From Escherichia coli (GTDB lineage Bacteria; Pseudomonadota; Gammaproteobacteria; Enterobacterales; Enterobacteriaceae), in the NCBI RefSeq assembly GCF_013122565.1, contig NZ_CP053258.1: 64,000 nucleotides of DNA; one strand, written 5' to 3'. Numbering within the stretch: the stretch's first letter is position 1; the number at the start of each line of letters is the position of its first letter. The position numbers were made by a program, and so were the translations under genes. Positions 213 to 61,919 of the stretch are shown piece after piece. The notes under the pieces are model-generated. The model was not told the DNA's origin. It saw nothing but the letters and a program-made list of their open reading frames with translations, and did not search any database.

Positions 213-3537
<3,325 letters not shown>

Positions 3538-3751
3538 CGCGCACCTCGTGGCTGATTATGGACGGCGTTATTGGCAAAGTGGAACAAGACTCACTCCCGG
3601 GTCAGCAAACTCGAAAAATTGACGCTCCCATTATTTGTGCTTTCGTTTTTTTCTATCCGCCAATAAACCCGTTTTTTTGTTGCTATTTAGCGCCTTTGTC
3701 TTATTGACTTACTGGTAGGCTTTGCTACCAGAAATTATCCGGGAGATGAAA
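3538..3751. promoter_or_regulatory. Divergent fliE / fliFGHI class 2 (FlhD4C2-dependent) promoter region
   Basis: 214-bp AT-rich spacer between divergent fliF (-) and fliE (+) starts; assigned from known flagellar regulon organisation, no motif explicitly matched. Confidence 0.5.
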
Positions 3752-4066
3752 ATGTCAGCGATACAGGGGATTGAAGGGGTTATCAGCCAGTTACAGGCTA
3801 CGGCGATGAGTGCGCGTGCACAGGAGTCCCTGCCACAACCGACCATTAGTTTTGCCGGGCAGCTGCACGCCGCGCTCGATCGCATAAGCGATACACAAAC
3901 AGCCGCCCGCACGCAGGCAGAAAAATTCACTCTCGGTGAACCCGGCGTGGCGTTAAACGATGTGATGACCGATATGCAAAAAGCCTCAGTTTCTATGCAA
4001 ATGGGGATTCAGGTGCGTAATAAGCTGGTGGCGGCGTATCAGGAAGTGATGAGCATGCAGGTATAG
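3752..4066 (+). CDS. fliE: Flagellar hook-basal body protein FliE
   Basis: ORF 3722..4066 trimmed to ATG at 3752 ([22 protein letters not shown]...), 104 aa; RBS gggag upstream. Confidence 0.9.
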
Positions 4067-27340: not shown

Positions 27341-27844
27341 TCAATGCAGCTGATGCGACACGACATTCAGAACATGTTGGTCGGTCTGCACAGGGCACAT
27401 ACCCGCAAGTTTCGCACTGCGCACCTCTTCAAGAATGGTTTGCAGCAACAGGCCATCATGCTGCTGTTCTTTTTCCAGATCGCGCAGGAAATTGACGGTT
27501 GAATCATCATTCAGTTCTTTCGCTTCATCGGCTAACTGCGCCAGCGTGCTTGAACGTTGCTCGTATTCTTCCATCGTTTTTTGGAACAGTTCTTCCAGAG
27601 AGTTCAGTTTTTCACCGGGAACATCAATGGCTTTAACGATGGGGGTAGCGCCGACACTCTTCATAAAGTTAAACATGCGCATCATTTGGGTCACATTACT
27701 CTGTGCCTGGGCGCGTAGGAAAGTGGCGGTGCCGTTCAGACTCTGTTCAGAACACCAGTTACTCAGGTGAAGGTAGAGATTGGATGCGTAAAACTCGCGG
27801 TTCATTTGAGAGTTGAGTTTGAGAAGCATTCCAGCGGTTGCCAT
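27341..27844 (-). CDS. ftnB: Ferritin-like protein FtnB
   Basis: ORF 27341..27844, 167 aa, [30 protein letters not shown]...; ferritin-like paralogue of ftnA. Confidence 0.9.
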
Positions 27845-28640
27845 ACCTAATATCCTTATATCCAGAAGTGGAGAGGTGCAAGATAAATCAAAGCACCATA
27901 ATTACTGTTTGCAGAATAATTCCTTTCTGCCGGTCCGAAATGTGATCGTGGAGTCAATTCTGACGATGATCTGAAATAAGAATAACGTGTGTACGGGTAT
28001 AAGAAAATCCTTAAATCATCAAGTTTATATTTTTTTACATTTCATTGATGAAATCAATGTAACTGCAATGAATTTTAATGATAGTGCTTTTTGTATCTTG
28101 TTGATATCAATCGATAGATTTAAATTCATGATGAAGCAATGATTTTATAAAACGTTTTTTCATTTTTGCGAGATGGCTCGCATTATATGTGTTCTGTTAA
28201 TTAATGAGCCCAGTGATAATTAATGGCGAAATGAATGACGCGCATTTCCCACATCTTTGAGTTGCGGTTATTACGCCATTTCAAAAGCTCAACGTCAGGT
28301 AATGCGGCCTATTGACTGGTTAAAAAGAAGACATCCCGCATGGGTACCAAAGACAACAAGGACTTCCAGGCTAATCTTATGGATTAATCTGCTGTGCACT
28401 CGACAATTTGTCTGACAAATAAGTATTTCCTTATGTCTTTTCCCGCTAAATTTATGCACGTTCTCACTGTAATTCTGCGATGTGATATTGCTCTCCTATG
28501 GAGAATTAATTTCTCGCTAAAACTATGTCAACACGGTCACTTATCTTTTAGTTAAAAGGTAATGCTTTGTTTTCCGATTAATTTAACGAAAGTCATTCGT
28601 TTTTGCCCTACACAAAACGACACTAAAGCTGGAGAGAACC

Positions 28641-29630
28641 ATGCACAAATTTACTAAAGCCCTGGCAGCCATTGGTCTGGCAGCCGTTATGTCACAATCC
28701 GCTATGGCGGAGAACCTGAAGCTCGGTTTCCTGGTGAAGCAACCGGAAGAGCCGTGGTTCCAGACCGAATGGAAGTTTGCCGATAAAGCCGGGAAGGATA
28801 TAGGGTTTGAGGTTATTAAGATTGCCGTGCCGGATGGCGAAAAAACATTGAACGCGATCGACAGCCTGGCTGCCAGTGGCGCAAAAGGTTTCGTTATTTG
28901 TACTCCGGACCCGAAACTCGGCTCTGCCATCGTGGCGAAAGCGCGTGGCTACGATATGAAAGTCATTGCCGTGGATGACCAGTTTGTTAACGCCAAAGGT
29001 AAGCCAATGGATACCGTTCCGTTGGTGATGATGGCTGCGACCAAAATTGGCGAACGTCAGGGCCAGGAACTGTATAAAGAGATGCAGAAACGGGGCTGGG
29101 ATGTCAAAGAAAGCGCGGTGATGGCGATTACCTCCAACGAACTGGATACGGCTCGTCGCCGTACTACGGGGTCTATGGATGCGCTGAAAGCTGCCGGATT
29201 CCCGGAAAAACAAATTTATCAGGTACCTACCAAATCTAACGACATCCCGGGGGCATTTGACGCTGCCAACTCAATGCTGGTTCAACATCCGGAAGTTAAA
29301 CATTGGCTGATCGTCGGTATGAACGACAGCACCGTACTGGGCGGCGTACGTGCAACCGAAGGTCAGGGCTTTAAAGCGGCCGATATCATCGGTATCGGTA
29401 TTAACGGTGTGGACGCAGTAAGCGAACTGTCTAAGGCACAGGCAACCGGCTTCTACGGTTCCCTGCTGCCAAGCCCGGATGTACATGGTTATAAGTCCAG
29501 CGAAATGCTTTACAACTGGGTAGCAAAAGGTGTTGAACCGACCAAATTCACCGAAGTTACCGACGTGGTGCTGATCACGCGTGACAACTTTAAAGAAGAA
29601 CTGGAGAAAAAAGGTTTAGGCGGTAAGTAA
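28641..29630 (+). CDS. araF: L-arabinose ABC transporter periplasmic binding protein AraF
   Basis: ORF 28641..29630, 329 aa, MHKFTKALAAIGLAAVMSQSAMAENLKLGFLVKQPEEPWF... Confidence 0.95.
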   Translation: MHKFTKALAAIGLAAVMSQSAMAENLKLGFLVKQPEEPWFQTEWKFADKAGKDIGFEVIKIAVPDGEKTLNAIDSLAASGAKGFVICTPDPKLGSAIVAKARGYDMKVIAVDDQFVNAKGKPMDTVPLVMMAATKIGERQGQELYKEMQKRGWDVKESAVMAITSNELDTARRRTTGSMDALKAAGFPEKQIYQVPTKSNDIPGAFDAANSMLVQHPEVKHWLIVGMNDSTVLGGVRATEGQGFKAADIIGIGINGVDAVSELSKAQATGFYGSLLPSPDVHGYKSSEMLYNWVAKGVEPTKFTEVTDVVLITRDNFKEELEKKGLGGK

Positions 29631-35016: not shown

Positions 35017-35518
35017 AACCTGTTCCTTATTCTGTGAACTTCAGGTGACATTAAAGCTTTACTCCTAATGGAGAAACGACGCAATCCCAACTCAGTCAAA
35101 CAGGTAAATATTAGTCTGATTATTAGTAAAGACAATTAAACAATTGCTTCCGGTGATCATATGATTTCAAATGTAATTATAAGAAAATAGTGTACTGATT
35201 CTCCGCATTAAACAAGTGGTTAATATATGTAAAACATTTTATTAACATTAAGTTGATTGTTGCCTTTCTTTGTATTTAATCAGTTTGTTGTGCGGTAAGT
35301 GTCTGTTTAAAAATAGCTTATCTGGTATTGCATGAAAGTGATTATTTATAGCAGATGATTATTTACGGTGAGTTATTTTAACTGTGCGCAACATCCCATT
35401 TCGATTATTCCTGTTTCATTTTTGCTTGCTAGCGTTGCGAAAAACTTTTTAACAGATTGAAATACACCCAAAACAAAAGTATGACTTATACATTTATGTT
35501 AATTAATTGAGTGTTTTG

Positions 35519-35534
35519 TGTGATCTACATCACA
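35519..35534. promoter_or_regulatory. CRP binding site in the flhDC promoter region
   Basis: tgtgatctacatcaca is a perfect TGTGA-N6-TCACA; it lies ~270 bp upstream of the flhD start, consistent with the known CRP-activated flhDC promoter and its long 5'UTR. Confidence 0.65.
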
Positions 35535-35795
35535 CATTATTGAAAATCGGAGCCCCCCTCCGTTGTATGTGCGTGTAGTGACGAGTACAGTTGCGTCGAT
35601 TTAGGAAAAATCTTAGATAAGTGTAAAGACCCCTTTCTATTTGTAAGGACTTATTAAACCAAAAAGGTGGTTCTGCTTATTGCAGCTTATCGCAACTATT
35701 CTAATGCTAATTATTTTTTACCGGGGCTTCCCGGCGACATCACGGGGTGCGGTTAGACCGCATAAAAATAAAGTTGGTTATTCTGGGTGGGAATA

Positions 35796-41157: not shown

Positions 41158-41183
41158 TTCTCCCGATTTCCTCAATTGAAATG

Positions 41184-41213
41184 AACCCGATGATCTGCGC
41201 ATCGGGTTTTTTA
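41184..41213 (+). terminator. Rho-independent terminator after cheW
   Basis: Hairpin cccgatgatctgcgcatcggg followed by ttttttatttc. Confidence 0.65.
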
Positions 41214-41243
41214 TTTCAATTTCGCGGCGGGTGGCATCAGCAA

Positions 41244-41270
41244 TAAAGTTTCCCCCCTTCTTGCCGATAA
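41244..41270 (+). promoter_or_regulatory. sigma-28 class 3 promoter of the tar-tap-cheRBYZ operon
   Basis: taaagttt-N11-gccgataa: exact match to both halves of the sigma-28 consensus with 11-nt spacer, ~30 nt upstream of tar. Confidence 0.78.
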
Positions 41271-61820: not shown

Positions 61821-61919
61821 GCCTGATGCGCTATGCTTATCAGGCCTACATAGTCCCTGCAATATATTGAATTAGCAAGGTTTTGTAGGCCGGATAAGGC
61901 GTTCACGCCGCATCCGGCA
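61821..61919. repeat. BIME: two inverted REP units
   Basis: gcctgatgcgctatgcttatcaggcctaca (61821..61850) and tgtaggccggataaggcgttcacgccgcatccggca (61884..61919); near-identical to the pair downstream of fliC. Confidence 0.8.

Follow-up and report, generated by a model that had tools for sequence, protein, structure and literature searches.

Why are two divergent genes of Escherichia coli, ftnB and araF, separated by so long a stretch of DNA? In the window, by which we mean the whole stretch analysed (64,000 nucleotides of contig NZ_CP053258.1, assembly GCF_013122565.1), the minus-strand gene ftnB occupies 27341–27844 and the plus-strand gene araF 28641–29630. Between them is a gap of exactly 796 bp (27845–28640). 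An earlier note on this DNA had presumed that the gap holds the araFGH promoter and had seen room in it for an unannotated sRNA or small ORF. Our analysis makes it probable that the gap consists of two divergent, independently regulated control regions together with a non-functional spacer that was left by the loss of a gene. The functional parts were already known; the explanation by gene loss and a conserved dyad upstream of araF are minor additions to them. A hidden gene is not needed to explain one of the longest "empty" gaps in this region of the chromosome.

Size, composition and anatomy of the gap

The gap was compared with the other gaps of the window in length and with the window itself in composition. 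The first 50 kb of the window contain approximately 55 gaps, with a median length of 69 bp; this one ranks second, and the sole longer one (959 bp) is IS-scarred. Its G+C content is 35.7% vs. 50.3% for the window, and the lowest values, about 26%, are reached at 27972–28114. It contains seven perfect 6+6 palindromes, while dinucleotide shuffles contain 1.7 ± 1.6, and only one of 300 shuffles reached seven. The gap had been described as unusually long, strongly AT-rich and equipped with several short palindromes, and all three descriptions proved correct.

The counterpart gap in K-12 MG1655 (NC_000913 1986129–1986924) is also 796 bp long. Identity over the interval is 100% with strain VE-T9 and about 96% with K-12, and the RefSeq records of both K-12 and VE-T9 are free of annotation inside the gap. 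Of 5426 complete E. coli genomes, 5417 contain the interval, as a single copy (median of one place per genome). In one strain, an IS1 element is inserted within the ftnB–araF gap.

Comparison across strains, species and genera divided the gap into the following features (coordinates, strand, description):

27845–27971, minus strand: ftnB 5′ leader of about 127 nt, a target of translational repression by CsrA (sequence, fold, PMC6686035)
27972–28040, minus strand: putative ftnB core promoter, with the −10-like TATTCT (27979–27984), a conserved upstream block and a CpxR-type box
28101–28114: FNR-type box TTGATATCAATCGA, a pattern match with one mismatch, centred at about −137 from the ftnB transcription start site (TSS)
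28115–28354, no strand: spacer without detectable function, 240 bp, Escherichia-specific, 38% G+C, evolving at an approximately neutral rate
28357–28394, plus strand: distal AraC-type site, CAAGGActtccagGCTA + TATGGAttaatctGCTG, direct half-sites at 28357–73 and 28378–94, 21 bp apart
28406–28420: perfect 7-1-7 dyad ATTTGTCtGACAAAT, lying between the two AraC-type sites, with no regulator assigned
28432–28469, plus strand: second AraC-type tandem site, TATGTCttttcccGCTA + TATGCAcgttctcACTG, half-sites at 28432–48 and 28453–69, 21 bp apart
28470–28541, plus strand: activator block ACTGTAATTCTGCGaTGTGAT…GCTCTCcTATGGAgaATTAATTTCtCGCTAAAAC, an invariant block holding a CRP-type half-site TGTGA (28481–28496), followed by the CRP-type TGTCAACACGGTCACT
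28558–28640, plus strand: araFGH −10-like TAATGC (28560–28565), leader and Shine-Dalgarno (SD) sequence GGAG (28631–28634)

Known control regions thus cover about two thirds of the gap (27845–28114 and 28355–28640). Another gap in the same window, that between uspC and flhDC (35017–35795), is likewise long (779 bp), AT-rich (34.7% G+C) and regulatory, and insertion sequences target both. The upstream region of flhDC has many regulators packed densely over its whole length, whereas the ftnB–araF gap is without constraint over about 30% of its length.

The ftnB and araFGH control regions

The ftnB leader is the target of a described translational control. Pourciau et al. 2019 (PMC6686035) reported a ftnB 5′ UTR of 127 nt with four GGA motifs, footprinted three CsrA sites on it, one of them over the SD, and found that CsrA represses translation via this leader. 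In the 127 nt upstream of the ATG, the window differs from K-12 at a single position, and all four GGAs are present, on the minus strand at 27853–55 (in AAGGAT, the SD), 27861–63, 27921–23 and 27934–36. Folding revealed a hairpin GCAGAA-N8-UUCUGC at 27911–27930, whose loop holds the GGA at 27921–23. The ftnB leader thus combines what is expected of a CsrA-controlled leader: several GGAs, of which one sits in the loop of a hairpin and another overlaps the SD. No feature differing from the published leader was found. Newly seen here is its conservation across genera: in 64 ftnB loci of other species, the hairpin stem is preserved, and variation in the loop spares the GGA. Among nine E. coli strains, only 2 of the 127 leader positions are variable (a density of 0.016). 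On the published mechanism, CsrA would bind the GGAs of the leader, including the one in the hairpin loop and the one on the SD, and so block translation of ftnB.

As the leader is 127 nt long, the ftnB TSS is expected at 27971. The −10-like TATTCT lies 8 nt upstream of this position, and most genera read TATGCT there. Further upstream, at 28024–28038, a pattern match with one mismatch identified a CpxR-type tandem, GTAAAAAAATATAAA (GTAAA-N5-ATAAA), centred at about −60. Both this box and the −10 are kept in the 64 ftnB loci of other species, and several genera have GTAAA-N5-GTAAA. Judged by this sequence pattern, a tandem GTAAA-N5-GTAAA upstream of the −35, ftnB probably has a CpxR-activated promoter, and PMC9600279 lists the gene as Cpx-activated. 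The FNR-type box, which has one mismatch in the window, is perfect in K-12 (TTGATATTAATCAA). According to a statement in PMC3212961 that cites Partridge et al. 2007, the E. coli ftnB promoter is bound by FNR unusually far upstream. E. coli strains differ in the right half of the box, which other Escherichia species have not retained, and the position of the box at about −137 is atypical. The emerging picture would be that of a weak ftnB promoter assisted by two boxes: the CpxR-type one at about −60 and, at about −137, the FNR one, the latter in K-12-like strains.

Published Term-seq data (Adams et al. 2021) place two 3′ ends in the whole gap, at K-12 positions 1986856 and 1986899, which correspond to 27913 and 27870 of the window. 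Both fall inside the ftnB leader. They most likely represent processing products, since their read counts are low and neither appears Rho-dependent or intrinsic (Rho score 0.49, intrinsic-terminator score 1.4).

The ftnB region was also compared with that of ftnA, likewise a ferritin gene with an extended AT-rich upstream region. At the ftnA promoter, Fe-Fur reportedly reverses silencing by H-NS (Nandal et al. 2010), and H-NS represses ftnB in Salmonella (PMC3212961). The two differ in that Fe-Fur acts at ftnA, whereas for ftnB neither a Fur box nor a Fur effect has been recognised: no convincing Fur box was found by eye upstream of the ftnB of the window, none is reported for the Salmonella ftnB promoter (PMC3212961), and Fur was without effect on an E. 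coli ftnB'-'lacZ fusion.

The araF side was analysed in loci fetched from 80 species. Conservation was mapped over 81 araF upstream regions, and patterns were counted over 91 loci. Essentially all 80 species share homologous sequence over the 290 bp upstream of araF, and this homology starts sharply, at about 28351–28357; the nhmmer alignment on this side begins at position 507 of the intergenic region. Two pairs of AraC-type half-sites (17-bp direct repeats of the TAGC-N7-TCCATA type, 21 bp apart) lie within it. In 69 of the 91 loci, the distal pair is found a single time and always equally far from araF, and its contact positions are 80–100% conserved. The second pair was found, again once per locus and at a fixed position, in 79 of the 91. 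Downstream of the pairs, 60 bp (28466–28525) that include TGTGAT and TATGGA are nearly 100% conserved in the 81 sequences. A search with the CRP pattern TGTGA-N6-TCACA gave two matches, each with two mismatches: one at 28481–96, which is invariant across genera, and one at 28526–41 (TGTCAACACGGTCACT), which would lie at about −41.5 and is conserved within Escherichia only. TAAtgc…TTGTTTT and GCTGGAG are invariant across the 81 sequences. Within E. coli, only two sites vary in 28432–28575 among the nine strains, and the density of variable sites in the araF core promoter is 0.014.

The araFGH promoter of K-12 reportedly has two AraC sites, araFG1 and araFG2, and a CRP site (Hendrickson et al. 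1990, 1992; Johnson & Schleif 2000). The order found here, with AraC upstream, then CRP and then a weak −10, would agree with that promoter, and the two motif pairs would correspond to the araFG1 and araFG2 footprints. From the spacing of these elements and from earlier work on the promoter, the araFGH TSS is placed tentatively at about 28571–28577. In K-12, araFGH transcription is arabinose- and cAMP-dependent; this order of tandem AraC-type sites, CRP-type sites and a weak −10 would be suited to such control. A reporter fragment starting at about 28265 of the window is said to hold all known araFGH regulatory elements. Over 28355–28640, the window differs from the K-12 araFGH promoter at nine positions, five of them within 8 bp just downstream of the conserved dyad. 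The sequence is orthologous, with no material difference. In O157, araF was reported to be AraC-dependent (PMC8489885).

The presumption of an araFGH promoter with AraC and CRP sites is thus supported by AraC-type pairs and CRP-type sites at 28357–28541 that are position-locked across about 80 species. As an account of the regulation within the gap, it covered the araF side and missed about 270 bp on the ftnB side, with its leader, promoter, CpxR-type box and FNR box. The conservation map of the two regions delimits what araFGH or ftnB reporter constructs must include.

Between the two AraC-type pairs, the dyad at 28406–28420 forms a conservation island in the 81 sequences. An exact copy of its core, TTTGTCNGACAA, is present in 47 of the 91 loci. 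Each copy sits 234 nt upstream of the araF ATG, and the approximately 750 kb of fetched loci contain no other. The dyad is kept in all nine E. coli strains, with variation at the central base only; nowhere in the gap is polymorphism higher than in its flanks. To our knowledge, no regulator has been assigned to this dyad; its shape resembles that of operators of the GntR/FadR type (TnGT-N3-ACnA) or the LysR type (T-N11-A). Tentatively, and with the odds rather against it, ATTTGTCnGACAAAT (28406–28420), at its fixed 234 nt from the araF start from Escherichia to Kosakonia, could be proposed as the operator at which a dimeric regulator, so far not connected with araFGH, binds. If this were true, that regulator would be a third input to high-affinity arabinose uptake. 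The dyad is a concrete and cheap target for studies of the regulation of arabinose transport, and no other part of the interval offers a prospect of novelty.

The middle spacer

Next to the two control regions, the middle of the gap evolves very differently. Across nine E. coli genomes, variable sites in 28115–28354 have a density of 0.145, compared with 0.148 and 0.113 at third codon positions of araF and ftnB, respectively; the ftnB leader (0.016) and the araF core promoter (0.014) vary about one tenth as much. Across Escherichia species the spacer is homologous, with 103 invariant columns vs. 28 ± 5 in shuffles, and about 50% identical, slightly below fourfold sites (59–68%). Neither blastn nor an nhmmer profile detected homology to it outside Escherichia. 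The segment is present, as a single copy, in 5416 of 5426 E. coli genomes, and its length is nearly constant in 5407 E. coli genomes and six Escherichia species. There is good evidence that the spacer evolves neutrally. The earlier note had suggested an analysis of conservation, which showed both flanking control regions to be conserved and the 240-bp middle to be unconstrained. Apparent islands of conservation within the spacer, for example GGTGATAATTAA, an ArcA-type-like word, were rejected, as they are not significant against an estimated neutral level of about 34% invariant columns. The spacer at 28115–28354 can be regarded as a candidate neutral insertion site.

Could the spacer nevertheless encode an sRNA or a small protein that is unannotated, specific to E. 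coli or Escherichia, and expressed in conditions not sampled so far? There is space for such a gene, and several ORFs of 26–54 codons are present. Published Term-seq data span only three growth conditions. A scan for terminators yielded three weak terminator-like hairpins, the best of which, at 28167–28182, is followed by a T-tract. This hairpin is unique to the lineage of the window, and its stem is broken in all nine other sequences (eight E. coli strains and Escherichia sp. L007). Sliding-window folding of both strands found one unusual window of 56, the 100 nt at 28195–28294 (z = −2.7), whose AATGGCG/CGCCATT stem is broken in K-12 by two non-compensatory changes. The covariance models of Rfam 15, a search that had been proposed before, gave no match in the gap at gathering thresholds; at E ≤ 10 only mir-33 (18 bits vs. 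a threshold of 50) and AaHKsRNA41 (16 vs. 97) appeared, both at chance level. A promoter scan found no sigma-70-like sites, the Term-seq data (Adams et al. 2021) contain no 3′ end within the spacer, and the supplementary tables of Bar et al. 2021 contain no RIL-seq node for the ftnB/araF gap under the conditions of that study. The curated K-12 record holds nothing there either.

Eight candidate ORFs were compared over ten genomes. The seven that lie in the spacer or reach into it are not conserved as ORFs; each of them carries an interruption, a frameshift or mostly non-synonymous changes in at least one genome, and interruptions or frameshifts were seen in L085, L087, L089 and L007. A conserved frame of 40 codons, at 28433–28555, overlaps the AraC/CRP block and is without an SD. 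By a hand tally, 5, 6 and 7 of its variable positions fall on first, second and third codon positions, respectively. Since there is no third-position bias and no SD, its conservation is attributed to protein-binding DNA. All ten genomes have the eighth candidate, at 28562–28657, in intact form, but this ORF begins in the araF −10 element; it starts upstream of the presumed araF TSS and would therefore be off the araF mRNA. In sum, we found no evidence of an sRNA or small protein gene in the spacer. With Rfam empty, polymorphism at the level of third codon positions and ORFs that are broken or change mostly non-synonymously, we consider such a gene very improbable, and the room that had been seen for one is not occupied as far as these results go. 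The Term-seq ends, which lie solely in the ftnB leader, come close to the situation that the earlier note had named as evidence against a hidden gene, namely that only the 5′ UTRs are expressed from the interval.

The low G+C of the middle relative to the genome, together with the IS1 insertion in one strain, could also suggest that it was acquired horizontally or is the remnant of a mobile or repetitive element. Such an origin would be difficult to reconcile with a segment that is single-copy in essentially every E. coli genome and homologous across all of Escherichia, with the excess of invariant columns given above. None of 50,697 phage records matched the spacer. It had no genuine plasmid matches, those in plasmid collections being mislabelled chromosomes, and no terminal repeats were found. 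A REP, ERIC, IS or prophage origin was rejected on the median of one place per genome and on the absence of similarity to mobile DNA, and we regard a mobile origin of any kind as extremely improbable.

A probable gene loss and the length of the gap

Next, we compared the gene content between ftnB and araF among species. In 47 of the 80 species, a DJ-1/PfpI gene lies between the two (PF01965, 105 bits, full-length). It is a 558-bp ORF, co-directional with araF, that encodes 185 aa, and the closest NCBIfam model for its protein is DJ-1 family glyoxalase III, just under the cutoff. In the loci that bear it, the median ftnB–araF gap is 1380 bp, and the distance from the DJ-1 stop to the araF ATG is constant at about 313–319 bp. 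All six Escherichia species are without the gene, and their gaps are 789–800 bp long. The syntenic loci of Citrobacter, Enterobacter, Leclercia, Kosakonia and others thus share with Escherichia the flanking genes, about 210–270 bp of homologous sequence by ftnB and about 290 bp by araF; they differ from it in having the 558-bp ORF, with a gap of about 1380 rather than 796 bp. Decaying copies of the gene were observed, with a frameshift in one Leclercia (L014) and internal deletions in two Citrobacter (L012 and L021). In Enterobacter, sister species with and without the gene indicate a separate loss.

The gap of the window was aligned to an nhmmer profile built from 40 DJ-1-bearing loci, in which the coding part occupies profile positions 501–1058. 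Intergenic positions 58–268 of the window aligned to the ftnB-proximal spacer and positions 507–796 to the spacer between DJ-1 and araF; nothing between them aligned. The G+C content of the Escherichia spacer (32–38%) is similar to that of the ftnB–DJ-1 spacer (34–37%) and differs from that of the DJ-1 coding sequence (51–57%). The lengths also fit, about 500 and 290 bp summing to approximately 796 bp. No coding remnant was detected in Escherichia by tblastn (E > 29), and nhmmer gave no match to the coding part in any Escherichia species. Consequently, it is the phylogenetic distribution of the gene that favours a loss over a gain.

The extra length of the gap is most simply read, from these sequence comparisons, as the scar of a DJ-1 loss in the ancestor of Escherichia; the alternative is a gain of the gene in the other lineages. 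On the former reading, the Escherichia lineage would have lost the DJ-1 ORF, whereby the AT-rich ftnB–DJ-1 spacer was fused to the DJ-1–araF spacer, and this fusion would account for the unusual length. The former DJ-1 promoter region, with no gene left to serve, would since have drifted at the neutral rate. An alternative allele shared among the lineages without DJ-1 was considered and rejected, as each lineage has its own mid-segment.

Selection might instead have kept the spacer for its composition or length, as an AT-rich scaffold on which H-NS or another nucleoid protein silences ftnB or insulates the two promoters. The G+C content of the region is 26–38%, and 32–38% is held in six Escherichia species in spite of about 50% divergence. 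Length is similarly stable: in Escherichia the gap measures 789–800 bp, and the other lineages that lack DJ-1 have one of about 770–815 bp. Substitution at the neutral level is compatible with selection that acts on composition only. In Salmonella, H-NS binds and represses ftnB, according to a statement in PMC3212961 that cites ChIP data, and a scaffold of this kind would resemble the H-NS silencing at ftnA. However, mutational bias and low indel rates over such a period would also be expected to give AT-richness and a stable length, and species that bear DJ-1 manage with a different architecture. We judge a scaffold to be unlikely. It and the reading preferred here, two control regions and a spacer left by gene loss, can both hold.

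The mid-segments of the DJ-1-less lineages are non-homologous, each lineage having its own, although gap lengths in these lineages are grouped around 770–815 bp. Such similar lengths are not predicted by a pure model of random deletion, and a stable spacer length could reflect a constraint on spacing or on composition.

Probable gene loss and gap length between ftnB and araF

A 185-aa DJ-1/PfpI gene is conserved directly upstream of araFGH in most Enterobacteriaceae (positions 3126-3683 in locus L013, and 46 other loci). From its phylogenetic distribution, we infer that this gene was lost independently in Escherichia, the Enterobacter vonholyi group, C. freundii, and Atlantibacter; copies in decay were found in two Citrobacter loci (L012 and L021) and in Leclercia (L014). 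Across loci L003-L082, the mid-segments between ftnB and araF in lineages lacking the gene show no mutual homology, while the lengths of their ftnB–araF gaps cluster at ~770–815 bp. Such clustering would not be expected from random deletions.

The gap carries an insertion in one E. coli strain, Ecol_542 (L090):

L090 3201-3970 (window ~28047 onward): IS1 in the gap

The element was inserted at intergenic position ~203, where the gap is AT-rich. A deletion has removed the remaining gap together with araFGH, otsB, and all of otsA but a C-terminal fragment, which adjoins uspC.

Short repeats within the gap

Short repeated elements in the gap include:

28406-28420: perfect dyad ATTTGTCtGACAAAT, between the AraC-type sites upstream of araF
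28195-28206 and 28214-28225: direct repeat TGTTAATTAATG / TGATAATTAATG, in the mid-gap spacer

Of the 91 loci, 47 carry the dyad at a locked position, 234 nt upstream of araF. Within E. coli only its central base varies, and its flanks are hypervariable. We know of no regulator for this element. The direct repeat, which is similar to the ArcA-type word WGTTAATTAW, does not vary among nine E. coli strains and is mostly retained across Escherichia; the conservation run was not significant when compared with the neutral expectation.

3′ ends within the ftnB leader

Published Term-seq data place two minus-strand 3′ ends, each with few reads, within the ftnB leader, at positions 27870 and 27913. 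The end at 27913, which lies in the CsrA hairpin (the GGA-loop hairpin of the leader), inside its 3′ arm, was scored as neither Rho-dependent nor intrinsic; that at 27870 was detected in another growth condition and has no reported scores. Both may represent CsrA-protected or processed fragments of the leader.

Divergence of the strain and other features of the window

Comparison with K-12 over positions 27845-29630 marks the strain of the window (VE-T9 lineage) as an outlier, and only 6 of 5417 genomes have a gap at least 99% identical to its own. At fourfold sites of araF, 12% differ between this strain and K-12, a high value for a comparison within a species.

Three Rfam matches were obtained, all outside the ftnB–araF gap:

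41177-41254: C0465
57599-57906: MicL
61842-61884: ES036 (CssrF)

The window has another divergent regulatory gap that is long and AT-rich, between uspC and flhD (35017-35795; 779 bp, 34.7% G+C). The longest of the ~55 gaps in the first 50 kb (1449–2407; 959 bp, 55% G+C) adjoins 2408-4004, which holds an intact TnpB-family (InsQ) gene and, beside it, an IS200/IS605 tnpA pseudogene.
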